Shown here: piece by piece, positions 50 to 10,612 of the stretch
How positions within the stretch are numbered: position 1 is the first letter of the stretch
Layout of the letters: the number at the start of each line of letters is the position of its first letter
Source of the DNA: a virus
Virus genome (UHGV): UHGV-0162104
Direction: 5' to 3' (one strand)
DNA length: 10,612 nucleotides
The notes under the pieces: generated by a model
The model's input: the letters and a program-made list of their open reading frames with translations, nothing else
The model's database searches: none
What the model was told of the DNA's origin: nothing
Program-made: the position numbers and the translations under genes

Positions 50-2995
50 TTAGTGCTTCCCTTCTATTAAGTCTAACCTAGCTTTTATTCTTTCTATTTC
101 TCTGCGCTGCCATGCTGCCTCGATATAGAATAAGAGATCAGGTCTGACCCCCCATCTAGATCCTGCTGGCGTTATTTCAACGCGCTCAATGATGTCTTCC
201 ATTACCATCACTGGATTATCATCCTCATCAACAATGATGCTCCCGTCATTATCAGTCAGCGGCATTTCCCTTTGGCCAGTAATGACGTCATCATATACTG
301 CGGGATAATCGTCATAACAAAGAAAGGCATAGCGGCATGTTGTGCTTTCTTCTTCCATGAGTCCGTGAGAAATAAGAACATCACGAAGTTGCTGCGCGAT
401 TACACCATGATGTATCCTCGCCCCTTCTTCCCCCTTTATAGCGACAGCGTTCAGCCATTTATAAGCGATATACCTGACGTCACCCCAGGCATCCAGCAAT
501 GCTTCATCAGGAGAGACCGGCTCTGTCTTTAATGTTCCGTCACTGGTAACTACAGGGTTGGAGCCAAGATAAACTGTCGAGAACCTGTTTCCCGGATCAC
601 CAAGAGCATTTACATTATCAAGATAAGGTTTAACATCTCCGTTCTCAAAAAGATGTTCGAGTGCGTTATATACCGCGCGACGTGGAGTACTGCTTCCGGA
701 ACCATGCAACGTTATCATTGCACCATCTGCTGAAGACGTTGTTTCACCGCCGCTAACGATTAATCTCTGAGCGGTAACATCATCAGACGGTACTTTCTTC
801 GCAATAATGGCGTAATTACCCTCAAGTTTGACTTCCGCGCGAACTTGTCCTGATGTACCGGCATGGACAGTCAGTGACTGGACGGCAACATCATCTGTGA
901 AATCAACGGGTACAGGAACCGTCCTCACGCCTGACGTCGACATAAAAGTAGGAAGCGTTCTGTTAGGAGTGGCTCCGTAGACAAAATCCCTTGAAACAAA
1001 TTCTTCCTGTTTAATTTTCACCCTGAAACAATACAAATCAGCCGGGTGACCATCGTGAACATAAGGATATTTTCTGTTGTTATCCCCTATGCTCCATGGG
1101 TTTAGAAAGTCTTCCCCACCGAAAATGTAGTACAGCCAGTTGTCTTTGATACAAACTGAACCAACACCAACCGCAGAGTTAACTATTCCGCCCTGATAAA
1201 TCTGATCAGTAACATTAACCCACTCTACATTATCCAGACTCCACTCATTGACGTTAACTCTGGTCATAAATGTTCTTGGATAATTTCCTGCATAACGGTT
1301 ATCAGGTTCTCCTCCTTCCCACTCACCAAATGCGCGCTCACTGCCAAAAATAATCAGCTCATCGCCAACTTTGGCAAAAGGAAGGTTTGAGTGATGAACA
1401 TTATTTGGGAAGCGAAGAGAATTCCATGATGCACCTAAATCAGAGCTTCTGTGTAATGAACTACCGGGTTGAGTACTTAATGTTCCCCTGGTCGTCAGAT
1501 ACAGAATGCCATCATAATATTTTACACATGGCTCAGATGCATTCGCCTCATATTCTGCAGGTATGCGTCTGCGAACAAAGCTACCAGGAGAACCGAAAGC
1601 ATCAGAGAAATAGAGTATCCCAAGCTCGCGTGGCTCAATATCACCATTATGGTAGCCAACAGCAAAACTGTTATCGCTAATCGTCGCAAAACTGTGAATC
1701 TCAGTAACAGGAGTGCTTCCATCAACAAAAGAAGGAATAGTTCCAAGACGGGTTTTTCTCCATGGTGACGAGTGAAATGATGTACCAAAACTCCAGTATC
1801 TACCCTCGTTATTCTGATCCACATCCTGGGTATTTTGCGTCGTAACTGTAAAAGTATTTTTATCAATAACAGTAGTCACCGTCATATTCCCGGTAACACC
1901 TGTAACACCAGAGTTTGAGAAGTTGACAAAATCACCAGCAAATAATCCGTGATCAGTAATGCGAATATAAGCGACTTGCTGATTTGCTGCTTTCGTTATA
2001 CCACCATAAACGCGAAGGCTGCGACTCATTGGGCGATCCCACAACTCTGCAACCTGCAGTTTATTTCCGCTCACGGTCCGCGTCTCAATTACAGCAAAAA
2101 GGCGATTTCTGACAACCCCCATACTCATGCAGTGATAGTTAACTGTGGGATAGTTTTCATGTAAATCTGTAAGCCATTCCGGCGTTGTCCAGGTCTTCCC
2201 GTCATCTCCTGAGCGAACCCATGCAACATGGAGGTTATTTACACCATGGCGGTCTCCAGCCATAAAAGGCGCATAGATGACATTGTCATATACAAACGTC
2301 TTATCCTGCGTCCAGGCGTTGTACCACGGTGTATCTGTAATTTTAAACAACTCTCCCTGGATAAAATCTTCAGAAGCATAAAAAAGAGGCTGACCCGGTA
2401 TTCTCTCAAATAAAAAACGAGCATTTTTAAATCGACTGACATCCGGAAGAGTTGACACTTTAAAAGTAAGCCCTCGCCCATCTATCTTTTCACCACCTGT
2501 TGCAACAGAAAGTAATTCTGATAGAGCTGATGTGTCATCATGAACACCATCACCAATAGCCCCCCAACCTCTTAGATCATAACTGTCTCTCCATCTTGCT
2601 ATCTGAAGTTTTGGGTATTTATCCGCTCCATCTGGGTCTTCTAATTGCTGCCGTAGCTGATCAGGATCATACTTCAGCACATTAGGAAAATAGAACTGCT
2701 GTGCACCATACGCGTCATAAACAGCCATAGAATGGCCTTGCACAGTTACGAATTTGGCAATCTTCCCGTTATATACTGGGAATCCTGCTGCGTTAATAAC
2801 AATTGGCTGTGCTACCTGAACATGTTTACCATCTTCTCGTTCCAGATATACAGGGATCTGGTTTTCAGGATTTACAGGGTCAGTGTCAATTTTGCCGATA
2901 TAAATTTTGCCATTGGCTACGGCTTTAAAAGAACGCGCCATAGTGAAGAGTTGCGAAGGCATACTCACTACAACATTGGCTGTAATGTCTGTCAT
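50..2995 (-). CDS. Tailspike protein: P22-type head-binding N-terminal domain, sialidase-like central domain, C-terminal intramolecular-chaperone-like domain (predicted endosialidase-type capsule depolymerase)
   Basis: Intact 981-aa ORF with ATG at 2995..2993 and a GGAGA Shine-Dalgarno about 9 nt upstream. The first ~115 residues ([11 protein letters not shown]...[12 protein letters not shown]...VTVQGHSMA...NVLKYDPDQ) match the P22 gp9 head-binding domain as I recall it. Two Asp-box motifs (S-x-D-x-G-x-T/S-W) occur: SGDDGKTW at residues 262-269 (nt ~2189..2212) and SSDLGASW at residues 517-524 (nt ~1424..1447). The C-terminal ~150 residues (...[28 protein letters not shown]...) resemble the self-cleaving chaperone domain of endosialidases and other tail fibres. 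Confidence 0.8.
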
Positions 2996-3159: not shown

Positions 3160-3885
3160 CTATTCTGACAACGAATCAGACTTCGCACCCTGCGTCAGGG
3201 CGTTAATTGCCTTTTGTGCCTGCTGCATGGCTTTCTCAAACGCTGTTGATCCGCGTGTGGTGTTTGCCATTCGGAGCATTGCATTTCTGAATGGCTCGCT
3301 CTCATAGGCGCGAGTAAGAAGTCCGTAGCTTACTGCTGCGCCAGTTGTCGCCGGGTTCATTGCCGTCCCATATCCAATAATGAACGGGATGGTTTGCTGC
3401 CCTGTGGGTGTTGTTACTGCCGCTTTTGCTGCCTGCTGAGTGGACTGAAGGTAGTTTTTCAATCCTTTCAGATAAGCAGCGTCCTGACCCTTAAATGTGA
3501 TGCCAGTCTGGTTTTGCAGGATGTTAAGCTGTCGAAGGAACTGGTCAGGGGAACCGCCTGATTTCTCCATTGCCTTGGCAATGATGCCATTGCGCATTTG
3601 CGCCCTGCCAACACGACCAACTGAGTTATACAGCGTCTTAATTTCCGATTTGTTCTTGCTGAATAGCATGTTGTTGACAACTTCCGGCGTCAGGTCGCCT
3701 TTCATGAGAACATTCTTCAGCCTGGTATTCTTTAGTTTCGCCGCTTCGTCAGCGTAGACGGCATTGGCCTGCTGATATTTACGGAGAGTATCGTTGCCAA
3801 GATTCTGACCAATGGCACCATTGATATCGTCAGTCATAGCCTTGTAAACGCGCTGAATGGCGGCATCGGAACGGTTTGGTAACAC
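3160..3885 (-). CDS. Ejection/DNA-transfer-like protein, either a separate 241-aa gene with a GTG start or the C-terminal part of a frameshifted larger gene
   Basis: 241-aa ORF directly upstream of the tailspike on the same strand, the position held by ejection proteins in P22-like phages. GTG start at 3885 preceded by AAGGG. It overlaps the upstream ORF by 51 nt. Function is assigned by position and composition only. Confidence 0.45.
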   Translation of the reverse strand: MLPNRSDAAIQRVYKAMTDDINGAIGQNLGNDTLRKYQQANAVYADEAAKLKNTRLKNVLMKGDLTPEVVNNMLFSKNKSEIKTLYNSVGRVGRAQMRNGIIAKAMEKSGGSPDQFLRQLNILQNQTGITFKGQDAAYLKGLKNYLQSTQQAAKAAVTTPTGQQTIPFIIGYGTAMNPATTGAAVSYGLLTRAYESEPFRNAMLRMANTTRGSTAFEKAMQQAQKAINALTQGAKSDSLSE

Positions 3886-5153
3886 AGGTCACCCTTCACG
3901 TCCATTCTGAACTGGCTGCGCAGATCGCTTAATTGCTTCAAATCCAGAGTTACCGGGCCATTAGGACCAGCATTGCGAACAAGCTCATCACGATATGACT
4001 GAAGTTTTGAAATCGTCTCGTTATCAGCGACCTTACCAAGCTTCTGCAGGTTAGATATCTCAGTATCTATCTGCTGAATTGCTCTGGCAGGTTGAATGTT
4101 GACTCCTGCCATTGCATTCCGAACCTGCTCAAGTCTATTACCTGCGGCACGACGAATTCCTGATGTTTTCGCTTTAAGGCTGTCAATAATAACCGCTGGA
4201 TCATACTCACCGAATTTATCAGCAAATCTCTGCACCAACTGACTTCTCGCTTCCTGTTGCGTTGCTCTCATTCCGCTTGTGCCAGCCAGGGGGATATTTT
4301 CTGCTGTCGTTTGCGCCATTTTTCCGACGCGGGAAGTAGGCTGTAAGAGGTCAGTAGTATGAAGAGGTACTCCTTCACGCTCTGCAAATCTGATAGCCTG
4401 TTGCGCTTCTGGTGCGATAGCACCACGAACGCCACGATAAGCAGCACCTAATCCACGTCCGGCAGCGTTAATAGCGCCTCCAGCCAAAACACCAACGCCT
4501 AAATCGGTGGCGAGTGCTTCCGCATCATCTTTCGCACTATTTGCAGCAAGTGTTCCGACTGCGTTTTCTGCGAGAAGGCGAGTTGCACCCTGAGCAATTC
4601 GACCAGCAAGTGTTGGTGCCAGTGTTGCCGCTCTCTCAACGCCAGCAGGAGTGAGATAAGGCAATGCCTCCGCAAATACCCTGCCCTCTGTCGTTTGTGG
4701 AGTCAGCGCGCCTTGCTGAAGACCAAAGTCCTGTTCTAATCCCTGCGTTGTTACTCGTGGCGCTGGTTGATATGTCCCATCGCCAATGCCGAGTTTACCG
4801 CCAGCCCATGCCGCCGCGCTTGTTACAGCATCGGCAACTGATGCAGGTATGTTTGCCACGTTCACGCCAGCCTGCACCAGTCCGCGACCAGTCTCTTTCA
4901 CTGCTTCACCAAGGTCAGACATAAATCTACTTTGCTGTGGTTGTTGCTGTGCTACTGGTTGCTGTGTCTCCACTGGCTGCACAGATGGCAATGGATAGGC
5001 AGCATAGAAAGCTTGCTTAGCCTGCTCTGCATTTTCTCCGGCTTGCGGTGCCACGACTTCATTGAAGTATTGCTCCTGAGCCTGCGCTTTTTGTTCTGGT
5101 GCTAACGCCTGATACTGTGGAGAGGCGATAACATCTTTCCATGCTTTAGCCAT
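3834..5153 (-). CDS. Ejection/DNA-transfer-like protein (P22 gp20/gp16-like by position), Ala/Gln/Gly-rich
   Basis: 439-aa ORF with ATG at 5153..5151 and GGGGTGA about 5 nt upstream. Its start overlaps the upstream stop in a TAATG coupling motif. The last ~18 residues (DLCYQTVPMPPFSAFTRL) look non-native, which suggests a frame problem near the 3' end. Confidence 0.5.
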   Translation of the reverse strand: MAKAWKDVIASPQYQALAPEQKAQAQEQYFNEVVAPQAGENAEQAKQAFYAAYPLPSVQPVETQQPVAQQQPQQSRFMSDLGEAVKETGRGLVQAGVNVANIPASVADAVTSAAAWAGGKLGIGDGTYQPAPRVTTQGLEQDFGLQQGALTPQTTEGRVFAEALPYLTPAGVERAATLAPTLAGRIAQGATRLLAENAVGTLAANSAKDDAEALATDLGVGVLAGGAINAAGRGLGAAYRGVRGAIAPEAQQAIRFAEREGVPLHTTDLLQPTSRVGKMAQTTAENIPLAGTSGMRATQQEARSQLVQRFADKFGEYDPAVIIDSLKAKTSGIRRAAGNRLEQVRNAMAGVNIQPARAIQQIDTEISNLQKLGKVADNETISKLQSYRDELVRNAGPNGPVTLDLKQLSDLRSQFRMDVKGDLCYQTVPMPPFSAFTRL

Positions 5154-5769
5154 TAATCACCCCATAGTGAAGAAAAGTTACTGCCAGTAGTAGATTGTTG
5201 CCCTGGCATATTCTGCACCGGCTCCTGATAATCAAACTGTTTTTTAACAGTGCTCAACTTGCTTTCAAGCTGATTTCTAATCTTTCCGATAGAGTCACGA
5301 AAAGCCTTTTCACTCATTTTGGGGCTTAGGGCACCAACCGCATCGGATAATTTTTTACCCTCAGCATCTGAAAGAGCGCCCATACCCTTCAGGGACTGCA
5401 CCATAGGAAGGAATGTTTGAGCTTTAAAGGTGTCGAGCCTTGCTTCAAAGTTAGCCGCATCAGAGCCAGGAACTGTCGGAAACGCTGAGCGAATTCCTAC
5501 TGCTTTTGAAAGGCCGGGGCTTTGCTCTATCTCGTTGAGAGAATCAAGCGCGGTGCTGAACGTATCAACTGCACCCTGAGCGGCGGCCTGCCTGTCAGCG
5601 CGGGCTATGTCAGCCTTTTGCCGAACATCTGCCTGTTTCTGTTTTAGCTCTTCAAGCTTTAACTGATTGCTTTCTCTGGCTATCTGTCTGTCCAGAGCCT
5701 TTTCTTGTAATTCTGCTCTTTGTATTTCGCGGGAAAGAGCAGCATTCTGTGCGCTGATGTTCTGTCCAC
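5153..5769 (-). pseudogene. 5'-truncated gene fragment encoding the C-terminal ~205 aa of a coiled-coil protein (ejection-protein-like by position); no start codon
   Basis: The minus-strand frame is open from ~5807 to the stop at 5153 and reads ...[68 protein letters not shown]...MVQSLKGMGAL...SSLWGD. There is no ATG, GTG or TTG upstream of the internal Met at 5404. Its 5' end runs into the truncated holin in another frame. The 83-aa ORF 5153..5404 in the supplied track is its tail. Confidence 0.55.
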
Positions 5770-6012
5770 GTAGCCGATGAACACGCTCGTTATATAAGCG
5801 AGATTGCTACTTAGTCCGGCGAAGTCGAGAAGGTCACGAATGAACCAGGCGATAATGGCGCACATCGTTGCGTCGATTACTGTTTTTGTAAACGCACCGC
5901 CATTATATCTGCCGCGAAGGTACGCCATTGCAAACGCAAGGATTGCCCCGATGCCTTGTTCCTTTGCCGCGAGAATGGCGGCTAACAGGTCATGTTTTTC
6001 TGGCATCTTCAT
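5770..6012 (-). pseudogene. S: Lambda-type class I holin S, 3'-truncated after codon 81 (of 107 in lambda S as I recall it) and fused to unrelated sequence
   Basis: Translation [81 protein letters not shown] matches lambda S from memory, including the Met1-Lys2-Met3 dual-start motif. After Y81 (nt 5772..5770) it continues as [29 protein letters not shown], unrelated to the lambda S tail, while another frame opens into the downstream fragment. Confidence 0.75.
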
Positions 6013-6303
6013 GTCTTACCCCCAATAAGGGGATTTGCTCTATTTAATTAGGAATAAGGTCGATTACTGATAGAACAAATCCAGGCTACTGTGTTTAGTA
6101 ATCAGATTTGTTCGTGACCGATATGCACGGGCAAAACGGCAGGAGGTTGTTAGCGCAGCCTCTTGCCACCCGCTTTCACGAAGCCAGCCATTGCGCTGGT
6201 TTTCATTTATGCAAAACACACCGCACCGTAGCCACAGCGGATAATGTGATTATTTTTGTCTGTCTGGTATTTGGTTTGATGTGCTTTCAGAAATGTCGTG
6301 CTT

Positions 6304-6338
6304 AAAACGCAAAAAGCCCCGAGCTATTAACTCAGGGC
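6304..6338 (-). terminator. Intrinsic terminator downstream of the late promoter (tR'-like)
   Basis: On the minus strand: GCCCTGAG / TTAATAG loop / CTCGGGGC, an 8-bp stem with one internal mismatch, followed directly by TTTTTGCGTTTT. It lies about 30-60 nt downstream of the predicted promoter. Confidence 0.6.
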
Positions 6339-6367
6339 TTTATTTAACGAGTGCATTTATCCATCGT

Positions 6368-6403
6368 TGAGTCAAATTTACCCAACTTTATTCAAAAAGT
6401 CAA
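6368..6403 (-). promoter_or_regulatory. Late promoter pR'-like with the adjacent Q-utilisation region
   Basis: On the minus strand: -35 TTGACT (6403..6398), 17-nt spacer, -10 TAAATT (6380..6375), then TGACTCAACGATGG. This closely matches the lambda pR'/qut sequence as I recall it, and it sits between the Q fragment and S in the correct orientation. Confidence 0.6.
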
Positions 6404-6445
6404 TATTATGCCGTTAATATGTTGCCATCCGTGGCAATCATGCTG

Positions 6446-6841
6446 CTAACGTGTGACCGCGTTCAAAATGTTGTCTGCGATTGACTCTTCCTTGTGGCAT
6501 TGCACCACCAGAGCGTCATACAGCGGCTTAACAGTGCGTGACCAGGTGGGTTGGGTAAGGTTTGGGATTAGCATCGTCACAGCGCGATATGCGGCGCTTG
6601 CTGGCATCCTTGAATAACCGACGCCTTTGCATCTTCCACACTCTTTCTCAACAACTCTCCCCCACTGCTCTGTTTTGGCAATATCAACCGCCCGACCTGT
6701 ACCGTGGCAATCTCTGCATCTTGCACCAGGCGTCGCGGCACTACGGCAATAATCCGCATAAGCGAATGTTGCGAGCACTTGCAGTACCTTTGCCTTAGTA
6801 TTTCCTTCAAGCTTTGCAACGCCACGGTATTTCCCCGATAC
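6446..6841 (-). pseudogene. Q: Late antiterminator Q (lambda Q family), 3' portion only; no credible start codon
   Basis: Residues ...VSGKYRGVAKLEGNTKAKVLQVLATFAYADYCRSAATPGARCRDCHGTGRAVDIAKTEQWGRVVEKECGRCKGVGYSRMPASAAYRAVTMLIPNLTQPTWSRTVKPLYDALVVQCHKEESIADNILNAVTR match the C-terminal ~130 aa of lambda Q from memory, including the CxxC...CxxC zinc-binding pattern. The frame is open upstream only to 6955, with no ATG; the track's start at 6919 is a TTG. The first ~26 residues do not resemble the Q N-terminus. Confidence 0.65.
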
Positions 6842-6872
6842 CGCAACAGCTACTCCGGCGAAAGCAAAGAAA

Positions 6873-7005: not shown

Positions 7006-7566
7006 ATGACCACCATTACCAAAGAACGCGCGGAGATTAAATCATTCATCACTGGTTTCCTGAGCGACCCGGCGCACGATAACCAATCTTCAGACAGCCT
7101 GCTTGCCAATGTGTTTCGTATCGCACTGGCATCGCTGGAAGCCGAACCTGTAAGCCAGACTTACAACTTGCCAGAATTAATCGAAGGGATGGAAGTTTCC
7201 ATTGATGTAAGCACTTGTGATGCTGATTTAGGTAATCGCTATTTCGGTACCGTCACCGAGGCGTTAGAACTTGATACAGCCAAGAATGGTTACATCCTCC
7301 TTGTTCAGGACGCAGAGCCAAACTTCGATGTAAATGGCAACTCTCCGGTAACTCCGGATGGTTGGATAAGCTGTAGTGAGCGAATGCCAGAAGAAACGGG
7401 TGACATTATTGTTGTTTCGGATGGCATTGTAATGTCCGGGATTTCTTATTCTCGTCGTGACGGGTTCTATATAGCCGCATTGGAGTACGACGACGATGAA
7501 CCAATTGACGGTGTAACCCACTGGATGCATCTACCAGAACCGCCGCAGGAGGTTAACCGTGGCTAA
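7006..7566 (+). CDS. Early-region protein with a C-terminal DUF551-like domain
   Basis: 186-aa ORF with ATG at 7006. The C-terminal motif ...TPDGWISCSERMPEE...VTHWMHLPEPP is characteristic of DUF551 proteins common in prophage early regions. Same strand as xis and int. Confidence 0.7.
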   Translation: MTTITKERAEIKSFITGFLSDPAHDNQSSDSLLANVFRIALASLEAEPVSQTYNLPELIEGMEVSIDVSTCDADLGNRYFGTVTEALELDTAKNGYILLVQDAEPNFDVNGNSPVTPDGWISCSERMPEETGDIIVVSDGIVMSGISYSRRDGFYIAALEYDDDEPIDGVTHWMHLPEPPQEVNRG

Positions 7567-7843
7567 CCTGCAACTTGCCGTTAAAGGTGAATATTTCGAC
7601 CAGATGAAGTCAGGCGAGAAAACGGAAGAGTATCGCCTGTGTAATGACTACTGGAAAAAGCGCCTCGTTAACCGTAAGTATGACCGCCTGATTATCACAA
7701 AGGGATATCCGAAGCGCGACGACTTCAGTCGCAGAATTGATGTTCCGTATGACGGATATGAAATCAAGACAATCACACATCCGCACTTCGGCGATAAACC
7801 GGTAAAGGTGTTCGCGATAAAGGTGAATATCGGCAATGAATAA
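7559..7843 (+). CDS. ASCH-like (PUA-fold) domain protein
   Basis: 94-aa ORF with GTG start at 7559 and AGGAGG 6 nt upstream, overlapping the previous stop. It contains GEKTEEYR, which fits the ASCH GxKxxExR signature. Confidence 0.55.
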   Translation: MANLQLAVKGEYFDQMKSGEKTEEYRLCNDYWKKRLVNRKYDRLIITKGYPKRDDFSRRIDVPYDGYEIKTITHPHFGDKPVKVFAIKVNIGNE

Positions 7844-7847
7844 CAAT

Positions 7848-7874
7848 CCTCGCACTCGCGGGGATTTCTTTTAT
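7848..7874 (+). terminator. Candidate weak intrinsic terminator or attenuator after the ASCH-like gene
   Basis: CCTCGC / ACTC loop / GCGGGG, a 6-bp stem with one G-U pair, followed by ATTTCTTTTAT. Confidence 0.3.
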
Positions 7875-7885
7875 ATGGGGATAAT

Positions 7886-8686
7886 ATGACCATCCACTTT
7901 CACGGCAGCCCAATATGGGGTGATGAGCATGCCCCTACAGATATGCTGATTAAAGCCCTTTACCGTGATGGTGGGGCTTTTGTTTCATTTGCCAGACCAG
8001 AGCAGATGAAAAAGATTGCCATGTTCCCTTGTGATATACGCCTTGATAACGGCGCTTTTAGCGAATGGATGAAAGCATTAAAGAAAGGCACTCCGGTAGA
8101 CTGGAGTAAGAGACGAGCAAAATTCTACGACTTTGTTGGGAAGTGGTTCAGCAGAATTGAATGGTTTCTTATACCTGACGTTATCGAAGGGACAGAGGCA
8201 GAAAACGACGAGCAGATTGAGTTGGTTCCTGATTGGCTAAAATCAAAAGCGGTTCCGGTCTGGCATACCGACGAATCAATTGAACGTCTTTTACGCCTTT
8301 CTGGCAAATTTGAATGGGTGGCGATTGGATGCTGCGGCCCACACAGGCACATACGCTCTAAATGGTGGGAACAGAGAATGGATGAAGTTTTCACTGAGCT
8401 TTATATCAATCGTAATTTGAAAGTGAAAATTCATGGTCTTCGAATGCTCGACGTGAGAGTTCTTGGTATGTATCCGTTCGCCAGTGCGGATTCTACTAAT
8501 GTTGCTGTTAACGTACCGAAGACAGAGAAGCGATTTCCTGAGATTACCGACAAACTGGCACGTACAGCTGTACTTCGCGCAGCTATTGAAAAGGTGCACC
8601 CACCATCGATATCAGCGTGGGTAGACAGAAAGATGAGAGAGCCGGCGCAAGCCGGTTTTTTATTTGAATTCATCGACGCCGCTTAA
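7886..8686 (+). CDS. Hypothetical early-region protein of unknown function (266 aa)
   Basis: ATG at 7886 with GGGGA 5-6 nt upstream; long ORF on the same strand as the neighbouring early genes. No motif I can assign with confidence; it has an N-terminal HFHG and an internal GCCGPHRH. Confidence 0.6.
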   Translation: MTIHFHGSPIWGDEHAPTDMLIKALYRDGGAFVSFARPEQMKKIAMFPCDIRLDNGAFSEWMKALKKGTPVDWSKRRAKFYDFVGKWFSRIEWFLIPDVIEGTEAENDEQIELVPDWLKSKAVPVWHTDESIERLLRLSGKFEWVAIGCCGPHRHIRSKWWEQRMDEVFTELYINRNLKVKIHGLRMLDVRVLGMYPFASADSTNVAVNVPKTEKRFPEITDKLARTAVLRAAIEKVHPPSISAWVDRKMREPAQAGFLFEFIDAA

Positions 8687-8743
8687 TGCGGATTTCTTTT
8701 ATCTGAACTCGCTACGGCGGGTTTTGTTTTATGGAGACAAGAA

Positions 8744-9088
8744 ATGTCAGATTTGGCTATGAAGGTTTTGAAATGGCAATCAACTGGCGATGTCGGCATC
8801 AGTAGCGCAACTCTTGCCTCAATCGCATGTGGACTGAAAAAGAATATCTATGGTCATCACTTCGGCGCTCCACATGACGCAGCCGATTTCCGACGATGCG
8901 TTGCACTTGTTGAGCAGATTCCAGAAATCAGAGATTCATTCGACAAGGTTGCAAAGCGCGTTCCGGCATTCAAAGGCATCCTCAACGAATGGGATTCCCT
9001 CGTTGCTCTGTTGAAGTCTGAAATGAAGATACACGGAAACAAAGCACCAGAAACTTACAGAAGAATTAGCGAGCTACGCAAGGACTAA
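8744..9088 (+). CDS. Hypothetical early-region protein (114 aa)
   Basis: ATG at 8744 with GGAGA 6 nt upstream. No recognisable motif. Confidence 0.5.
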   Translation: MSDLAMKVLKWQSTGDVGISSATLASIACGLKKNIYGHHFGAPHDAADFRRCVALVEQIPEIRDSFDKVAKRVPAFKGILNEWDSLVALLKSEMKIHGNKAPETYRRISELRKD

Positions 9089-9094
9089 CCACAG

Positions 9095-9125
9095 CCTCAC
9101 ACTCGATGAGGCCTGTTCATTTCTC
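9095..9125 (+). terminator. Candidate intrinsic terminator between the early cargo genes and xis
   Basis: CCTCA / 7-nt loop / TGAGG (9095..9111) followed by the T-rich CCTGTTCATTTCTC. Confidence 0.3.
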
Positions 9126-9178
9126 AATGATATCCAGACCTACCGCAATAATACCAATTCAATAAATGGAGATTCCAA

Positions 9179-9469
9179 GTGGAAGAAGAAATCTTCACTC
9201 GTGAAGAAGCTGCGTCGTATCTGAAGGTAGACAAAGGCACTATCACGCAGTGGATACGAAGTGGACGACTTCAGGCCGCAAAGATAAATCCAGATAAACC
9301 TAAAAGCCCATATCGCATTTGCAAGTCAGACTGCATTGCGGCGCTTAAGTCTGTGAGACACAATAGCGCGGTGAATGCGGTTGATGTGCAGGAGGTTAAA
9401 GCATGTCAATCAAACTACGCGGTGGCACGTGGCACTGCGATTTCGTCGCGCCAGATGGATCAAGATTAG
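9179..9469 (+). CDS. xis: Excisionase (Xis/AlpA-like HTH DNA-binding protein), possibly shortened at its C-terminus by the same indel that disrupts int
   Basis: GTG start at 9179 with GGAG 7 nt upstream. The N-terminus FTREEAASYLKVDKGTITQWIRSGRL is a typical excisionase helix-turn-helix. It lies immediately upstream of and overlapping int. Stop TAG at 9467..9469. Confidence 0.7.
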   Translation: MEEEIFTREEAASYLKVDKGTITQWIRSGRLQAAKINPDKPKSPYRICKSDCIAALKSVRHNSAVNAVDVQEVKACQSNYAVARGTAISSRQMDQD

Positions 9470-10562
9470 ACGCTCTCTTGAAACATCGGACAAAAGGCAA
9501 GCGCAAGAACTTCACGATCGTCTGAAAGCAGAAGCGTGGAGAGTAAAAAATCTCGGGGAATCACCGAAAAAGCTATTCAAGGAAGCCTGCATACGGTGGC
9601 TGCGTGAGAAATCGGATAAGAAGTCCATTGATGATGACAAGAGCATTATATCGTTCTGGATGTTGCACTTCAGAGAAACCATTCTCTCTGACATAACAAC
9701 AGAAAAAATAATGGAGGCGGTAGACGGGATGGAAAACCGCCGCCATCGCCTGAACTGGGAGATGAGCCGGGACAGGTGTTTGCGGCTTGGCAAGCCAGTG
9801 CCGGAGTATAAACCAAAGCTGGCAAGCAAAGGAACGAAGACGCGGCATCTGGCAATACTTCGCGCTATTCTCAATATGGCTGTTGAATGGGGATGGCTTG
9901 ACAGGACGCCAAAAATATCAACACCACGCGTTAAGAATGGACGAATCAGATGGCTTACAGAGGAGGAATCGAAGCGCCTGTTTGCAGAAATTGTTCCTCA
10001 TATCTTCCCTGTGGTCATGTTTGCAATCACGACAGGCCTTCGCCGTTCCAACGTTACAGACCTTGAGTGGTCACAGGTCGATCTGGATAAGAAAATGGCA
10101 TGGATGCACCCTGATGAAACAAAAGCTGGCAATGCGATCGGAGTTCCTCTTAACGAAACCGCATGCCAGATATTAAGAAAACAGCAGGGACTCCATAAGA
10201 GATGGGTATTTGTCCACACCAAACCTGCCTACCGAAGCGACGGAACAAAAACAGCAGCGGTAAGGAAGATGAGAACCGACAGCAACAAAGCATGGAAGGG
10301 AGCGTTAAAGCGGGCAGGCATTAGCAATTTCCGCTTCCATGACCTGAGGCATACCTGGGCAAGCTGGCTGGTTCAGTCCGGTGTCTCTCTTCTTGCACTT
10401 AAAGAAATGGGAGGATGGGAAACTCTCGAAATGGTTCAAAGATACGCTCACCTTTCAGCCGGGCATCTCACCGAGCACGCGAGCAAAATCGATGCGATTA
10501 TAAGTCGCAATGGCACAAATACGGCACAAGAGGAGAACGTAGTTTACTTAAATGCGAGGTAA
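9403..10562 (+). CDS. int: Tyrosine site-specific integrase (P22 Int family) with an apparent 1-nt frameshift near codon 20-21; possible pseudogene or sequencing error
   Basis: ATG at 9403 with GGAGG 7 nt upstream gives MSIKLRGGTWHCDFVAPDGS..., resembling the P22-family Int N-terminus as I recall it, then stops at 9523..9525. The body of the protein is in another frame (track ORF 9375..10562) and contains the catalytic signatures HDLRHTWASW and VQRYAHL. Stop at 10560..10562, 15 nt before the tRNA 3' end. Confidence 0.85.
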
Positions 10563-10576
10563 CTTATTGATTTAAA

Positions 10577-10612
10577 TGGTGCCGATAATAGGAGTCGAAC
10601 CTACGACCTTCG
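10577..10612 (-). tRNA. thrW: tRNA-Thr (thrW-like), 3' portion only; the gene continues beyond the window. Likely overlaps the prophage attachment core.
   Basis: The plus-strand sequence TGGTGCCGATAATAGGAGTCGAACCTACGACCTTCG is the reverse complement of a tRNA 3' end (...CGAAGGTCGTAGGTTCGACTCCTATTATCGGCACCA) with T-arm, acceptor stem and CCA. It matches E. coli thrW as I recall it, the known integration target of P22. Confidence 0.8.

Follow-up and report, generated by a model that had tools for sequence, protein, structure and literature searches.

We conclude, with a probability of about 90%, that a genuine, inherited 1-bp deletion of a G in the overlap of xis and int disables both genes, and that it is one step in the ordinary decay of a prophage. 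The element that carries the deletion sits at thrW and is a patchwork remnant, about 12 kb long, of a CUS-3/P22-like prophage; most of it falls within the window (the whole stretch of DNA that was analysed, 10,612 nt). The features on which the argument draws are collected in Table 1.

A one-base deletion in the overlap of xis and int

Alignment with four intact relatives (phages mEp213 and HK75 and the prophages of E. coli 536 and H1) places the missing G between A9465 and T9466, where AGAGTT has become AGATT; the window reads TCAAGA-TTAGAC, compared to TCAAGAGTTAGAC in the relatives. This G is the only difference in length from the relatives inside the xis and int genes, and it falls inside the 124 nt that the two genes share. 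With the G put back in silico, int is 1161 nt (386 aa) and xis is 348 nt (115 aa), with a xis stop that corresponds to 9523-9525 in the present numbering. The restored Int differs from those of mEp213, HK75 and the two E. coli prophages by 3-5 amino acids, and the restored Xis differs from its counterparts in the same four relatives by 0-1 substitutions. Since both restored proteins are nearly identical to those of the relatives, the deletion is the sole disabling lesion in either gene, and one lost base disables both genes because they share this stretch in different frames.

The consequences for the two frames differ. After the deletion, the frame of the int start enters the former xis frame and yields a 40-residue peptide, which consists of MSIKLRGGTWHCDFVAPDGSR followed by 19 out-of-frame codons up to the stop at 9523-9525. 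The xis frame enters the third frame and stops after a single wrong residue; the truncated Xis thus comprises native residues 1-95, then D, then TAG, and the last 20 conserved residues (ELDALLKHRTKGKRKNFTIV) are gone. The sequence-only reading had proposed an integrase N-terminus that runs from ATG 9403 to a stop at 9523, a catalytic body in another frame, a switch between frames at about 9460-9466, and a 1-nt deletion whose repair would reunite int and extend xis to about 115 aa. Our results bear this out in each particular: the coordinates are correct, the body lies in the frame of the ORF at 9375-10562, the missing G falls within the range given for the switch, and the deletion shortens xis from 115 to 96 codons.

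Table 1. Features of the xis-int module and of the surrounding remnant (window coordinates unless a contig is named)
Feature	Position	Strand	Evidence
Intact 981-aa tailspike with P22-type head-binding domain and K1 endosialidase	50..2995	-	Pfam
P22 gp16-type ejection gene, split into 3834-5153 and 3160-3885	3160..5404, including gp20-type stub	-	both pieces PF26808
Lambdoid late-control fragment: 3' part of Q, late promoter with qut, 5' part of holin	5770..6842	-	Pfam Antiterm, Phage_holin_3_1
Early-left accessory genes: DUF551 protein (7006-7566) and ORFs 7559-7843, 7886-8686 and 8744-9088	7006..9088	+	same genes annotated in relatives
Truncated xis, 96 codons, GTG 9179, stop TAG 9467-9469	9179..9469	+	ORF list; 115 aa in intact relatives
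Ribosome-binding site AGGAGG	9391..9396	+	read directly, 6 nt upstream of int ATG 9403
40-codon ORF from the true int start	9403..9525	+	Int residues 1-21, then 19 codons that normally end Xis
1-nt deletion site	9465..9466	+	alignment with four intact relatives
Int body, native residues 22-386	9465..10562, stop 10560-10562	+	otherwise intact, lacks the native start
3' end of thrW, tRNA-Thr(CGU), att core at the int end; gene runs off the window	10577..10612	-	complete copy in extended contig
Intact Ints with late-start RefSeq calls	L003 809-1963; L004 810-1964; L006 2242-3360	n/a	PGAP annotation

The deletion is a real allele

The assemblies indicate that the deletion is real and is fixed in an Escherichia lineage other than E. 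coli, since it recurs in independent assemblies, is present in named isolates and is joined to a chromosomal flank unlike that of E. coli. Fourteen contigs encode the exact 96-aa Xis; they come from the NCBI isolate assembly GCA_019839765.1, ENA metagenome assemblies and Logan assemblies (the last from five SRA runs), and every contig with the truncated Xis is 100% identical to the window over 9100-10612. Counted by assembly, the deleted allele is present in at least 10 independent ones, with 100% identity over 1.5-10.6 kb; two contigs match the window at 100% over all of its 10,612 bases, and for the isolate the identity is 99.96%. The truncated Xis and the 377-aa Int each have three NCBI accessions, assigned to organisms named Escherichia marmotae or E. 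ruysiae, and between proA and gpt the chromosomal flank shares only about 93% identity with E. coli.

If the missing base were instead an error of sequencing or assembly, the true genome would carry the G and both genes would be intact. The sequence-only reading had offered this as an alternative, in the form of a homopolymer error, and single-base indels are indeed the commonest assembly artefact. Moreover, this segment occurs in 116 complete-genome records of E. coli, none of them with the deleted allele: all align 60 nt to the 59-nt query and thus have the extra base. An exact 45-mer across the deletion had no match among the GTDB species representatives. However, an artefact of this kind would be expected in one assembly and, typically, in a homopolymer, and we find neither. 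The site reads AAGA[G]TTAG, which is no homopolymer, and within 9403-9525 four or more identical bases in a row occur only at 9492 (AAAA); the identical allele occurs on all 14 contigs, which come from unrelated projects and assemblers (an NCBI isolate, ENA metagenomes and Logan SRA assemblies); and three NCBI protein accessions carry it. An extra base that restores the frame had been proposed as the sign of an error, and the independent assemblies show the same missing base. The homopolymer explanation thus fails, and an error of any kind at this position is extremely improbable.

The native start of int

The ATG at 9403 is, on the evidence of its ribosome-binding site and of conservation, the native start of int. 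It follows AGGAGG at a distance of 6 nt, and the first 21 residues that it encodes are identical to those of intact Ints, including the Ints of mEp213 and HK75. In an alignment of 46 sequences, M1 is nearly invariant and R6, W10 and R21, all of which lie upstream of the deletion, are invariant. We also examined the best 120 members of the family from a collection of 5.8 billion proteins; about 100 of these 120 are 385-388 aa long. Homologous intact integrases that start downstream of 9466 would have argued that the present body frame is complete, and none was found: P22 Int and mEp213 Int, like the roughly 100 listed proteins, have the full length of 385-388 aa, and the invariant residues R6, W10 and R21 precede the deletion.

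One candidate for a naturally shorter integrase, in E. coli G4/9, is annotated to begin 15 codons in, but the full MSLFRRGEIWYASFT N-terminus is present in frame upstream and the short form is an artefact of annotation. RefSeq (PGAP) starts several intact Ints of this family between 2 and 15 codons past the conserved ATG (Table 1), and the annotated lengths of 372-384 aa thus understate the true lengths of 386-387 aa. In the window itself, gene callers begin the Int body at GTG 9429 (377 aa) or at ATG 9729 (277 aa), while the 395-aa ORF at 9375-10562 was not on record among the called genes.

What is left of Int and Xis

The catalytic part of Int is preserved. The tyrosine-recombinase domain (PF00589) is found in the body frame with an E value of 1.2e-34, and the residues that are invariant in the family, based on the 46-sequence alignment (R214, K241, H313, R316, W339 and Y348), are all present and all lie outside the 3-5 positions at which the restored Int is substituted. 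The break falls in the N-terminal domain. An AlphaFold model of an intact relative has β strands at residues 3-6, 9-15 and 21-25 and a helix at 31-51, with a block pLDDT of 83-87 over residues 1-40. The best PDB matches to this model, from Foldseek, are full-length λ integrase (1z1b, E value 1.2e-9) over about 383 aligned columns, whereas for constructs that contain λ Int 75-356 the alignment covers only about 311 columns. In λ Int, the arm-binding domain comprises residues ~1-60 (PMC2629481), and the predicted fold of the N-terminal domain of this Int fits a resemblance to it. Sequence searches were less informative: a search with full-length Int for a solved N-terminal domain returned only matches to the catalytic domain, a search with the N-terminus of P22 Int alone returned only noise, and in Pfam the N-terminal domain gave only a sub-threshold match to DUF6538.

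The break after codon 21 coincides with the start of β3 and separates strands β1-β2 from the rest of Int, and in the window the arm-binding domain is no longer in one ORF with the core-binding and catalytic domains. Integrases of the λ/P22 type require the arm-binding domain to assemble integrative and excisive complexes. Ribosomes that start at the native int ATG would make only the 40-residue peptide, in which Int residues 1-21 are joined to the displaced Xis tail, and any product of what remains of Int (native residues 22-386) would lack β1-β2 of the predicted arm-binding domain.

In Xis, the helix-turn-helix domain is retained (Pfam HTH_17 at residues 6-51, E value 1.1e-8). Intact members of this family are 115-116 aa long and end in a conserved, basic C-terminal tail (LLxxRTKG), for which the codons lie where xis overlaps int, while the Xis in the window ends at residue 96. 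The lost tail is conserved between mEp213 Xis and the C-terminus of P22 Xis, and the truncated protein would keep its helix-turn-helix domain and lose the tail that it shares with P22. By analogy with λ Xis, the tail probably contacts Int. We infer that Int and Xis are both inactive. Some residual or altered activity is possible, given intact Int catalytic and Xis helix-turn-helix domains.

The module could still be alive if a functional Int arose by −1 frameshifting near 9463-9470 or from a start at ATG 9375 or GTG 9429. The body frame is open from 9375, and a −1 shift anywhere between 9403 and 9523 would give a fused protein; gene callers accept GTG 9429; and contig L011 (see below) may place the same module in E. 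coli, behind a different lambdoid prophage that is more complete. However, 9403-9525 contains no in-frame heptamer of the form X_XXY_YYZ and no run longer than AAAA, and in every relative Int is a single uninterrupted ORF, which argues that frameshifting is no feature of the family; on these two grounds we rejected a programmed −1 ribosomal frameshift. The alternative starts are poorly placed, GTG 9429 having only GGTGG, 3 nt upstream, and ATG 9375 having GGTGA directly abutting it, and either start would replace the conserved β1-β2 residues R6, W10, P17, G19 and R21 with out-of-frame sequence. Contig L011, moreover, is a metagenome contig of 2.8x coverage and may be chimeric. A functional Int from this allele is thus highly improbable, and we retain the reading that the deletion disables int as well as xis.

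The module lies in a remnant of a P22-like prophage

The window contains no repressor, replication, terminase, portal or head genes. The tailspike gene is intact and its product has the Pfam domains Head_binding, End_N_terminal, End_beta_propel (E value 8e-233), End_tail_spike and Peptidase_S74. This region matches that of CUS-3, a prophage of E. coli K1, at about 97%, with all endosialidase domains present, but of a phage of this kind the window retains no more than the tail end. CUS-3 uses argW rather than thrW, with a different integrase. Just outside the window, an intact neuO (13100-13771 in the extended contig L018) encodes 223 aa and matches NeuO (PDB 3JQY) with an E value of 9e-147.

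The other phage genes are damaged in several ways. The gp16-type ejection gene is split by a net deficit of 4 nt near 3886-3892, as compared to phage vB_EcoP-720R6, in which it is a single ORF of 665 aa, and it is preceded by an 83-codon stub of a gp20-type gene (5153-5404). In the isolate assembly, the gp16 fragment has lost another 2 nt, at about window position 4313, which indicates that decay is continuing. The late-control piece, 1.07 kb long, is stranded between unrelated fragments, with Q and the holin gene cut at its edges, and phages ECP1, HK140 and HK544 match the window here over 5770-6842 alone. The truncation of Q and holin at the fragment edges implies at least two large internal deletions.

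The sequence-only reading had suggested that inactivation of int locked the prophage in. Nominally this holds, since an element without working Int and Xis would be unable to excise or integrate on its own. It does not hold in the sense that a viable prophage was trapped, as no such prophage is left: what remains is the remnant of about 12 kb, devoid of immunity, replication, packaging and head genes and with other frameshifts. The deletion in int and xis may have grounded the prophage in the first place or may have come late in its decay.

Attachment sites and the ends of the locus

Int is encoded next to an att site, which lies at the 3' end of a tRNA gene, and the opposite end of the element has a second copy of att. 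Between the int stop and the 3' end of thrW are 14 nt. ARAGORN found no tRNA in the window, where thrW is cut by the window end, but the complete tRNA-Thr is present in the extended contig L018 at 2344-2419, and a tRNA-Thr is annotated in the E. coli relatives. The second, partial copy of the tRNA is about 12.06 kb away in L018.

Both ends of the locus show traces of other elements. The far att copy (L018 14435-14653) consists of the partial tRNA-Thr, with 2 mismatches. Beyond it lies what is left of another integrase, a 3' stub of 51 codons that shares 87% identity with the 3' end of int; this stub is a trace of an older element that lay in tandem at thrW. In contig L010 (Logan SRR32638993, from 3234 onward), the sequence diverges inside the att core, at window position 10595, and continues into a different integrase of 444 aa, with a DUF6538 N-terminus, and phage structural genes, which indicates that a second element has inserted at the same tRNA gene.

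Relatives of the module

Copies of 9100-10612 with 98.2-98.9% identity were found by megablast in phages and in about 120 complete E. coli genomes. They include the coliphages HK75, mEp213, mEp043, mEpX2, HK446, HK542 and ECP1, Shigella phage SfX and E. coli thrW prophages such as that of strain 536, with the identity given over 1513 nt. Modules of the HK75/mEp213/SfX type have the same order of xis, int and att at the 3' end of thrW, the same 124-nt overlap and the same start codons, but all of them have the G, an uninterrupted int of 386 aa and a xis of 115 aa; the allele in the window alone has the deletion.

The assignment to a P22-type module, proposed earlier, is backed by the layout as well as by alignments of Int and Xis. 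Salmonella phage P22 (NC_002371) has an int of 1164 nt (387 aa), a xis of 351 nt (116 aa, the length that the sequence-only reading gave for P22 Xis), the same 124-nt overlap and an attP downstream of int. Intact Int of the window type is 54% identical to P22 Int, from residue 1, and Xis of the window type is 42% identical to P22 Xis over its full length, including the C-terminal tail. P22 differs in that it belongs to another allele class, about 46% diverged in Int, and in that its genes are intact. P22 integrates at thrW (PMC2629481), and CP4-6 occupies the same site, according to the att annotation of mEp213.

Possible exchange between strains and possible new uses

The 1522-bp segment that comprises int, xis and att, including the deletion, recurs in contig L011 (1-10171, ENA ERZ1304745, 2.8x coverage). 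Upstream of it lies a different lambdoid prophage, with genes for Gam, RecT, an exonuclease, Dam, TraR and a DUF4222 protein, and the chromosomal flank of this contig is 99.3% identical to E. coli G4/9, as compared to 94.1% for the flank of the isolate. Either the dead module has entered an E. coli prophage by homologous exchange, or this contig is an assembly chimera whose parts join at the borders of the shared segment. A comparison of the flanks of the isolate assembly (L007) and contig L008 points to exchange in the host chromosome: after thrW, the first 841 bp are the same in both, the next stretch of about 2.7 kb, in proA-proB, differs at 82 sites, and identity resumes beyond it. This difference is a recombination patch in the host chromosome, and the remnant is identical in both despite it.

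It is conceivable, from the identical copies in strains with a patched flank and, if L011 is no chimera, from the copy in E. coli, that the K1-capsule island, together with its broken module, moves between strains by homologous exchange, or that it is moved in trans by Int and Xis of the HK75/mEp213/SfX type; movement in trans can be envisaged because both att sites are intact. We regard such mobility as unlikely. The dead int-xis module may, on this account, not merely be decaying; if so, grounding might have been selected because it fixes capsule O-acetylation in cryptic-clade Escherichia.

The lesion could also be real and its products reused, with new roles for a tailless Xis and an Int that lacks the arm-binding domain, in a grounded island that is kept for neuO and the tailspike. 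The tailless Xis could bind DNA as a regulator or could inhibit excision by related phages, and the shortened Int could be a core-only recombinase. The helix-turn-helix domain of Xis and the catalytic residues of Int are untouched, the tailspike gene and neuO are intact while their neighbours are wrecked, and strains that a recombination patch in the proBA flank sets apart have identical remnants. However, there is no variation among the carriers with which to test selection, and a recent deletion would leave the genes looking just as intact. Since the allele is 100% identical in all carriers, there is no signal of relaxed selection after the deletion. We consider reuse very unlikely, and favour loss of both genes in a decaying prophage.

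Discussion

The deletion is an instance of ordinary pseudogenisation in a decayed prophage, of a kind that is already known, and its biological significance is low. Prophages in which excision was lost by mutation, followed or accompanied by large deletions and by the retention of a few genes useful to the host, have been reviewed as grounded prophages (PMC6379469). The element in the window fits the same scenario as the cryptic prophages DLP12, Rac, e14, Qin and CP4-6, but unlike these it is a P22/CUS-3-like remnant in Escherichia other than E. coli, and in it a single base affects two overlapping genes. It thus provides a clean natural example in which one base grounds both arms of a recombination module by way of the 124-nt overlap typical of P22.

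For annotation, int and xis should be flagged as pseudogenes, with one frameshift that affects two overlapping genes, and the region should be described as an immobile prophage remnant. The names under which the products now stand at NCBI, a 377-aa ‘site-specific integrase’ and a 96-aa ‘helix-turn-helix protein’, are to be avoided.

The deleted allele also marks a cryptic-clade lineage of Escherichia in which a remnant at thrW has preserved a K1 endosialidase and neuO. The remnant carries both of these genes in hosts named E. marmotae or E. ruysiae, rather than in E. coli K1; it could be a domesticated island for capsule modification, and a lineage with endosialidase and neuO could aid studies of how the K1 capsule is modified outside E. 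coli.
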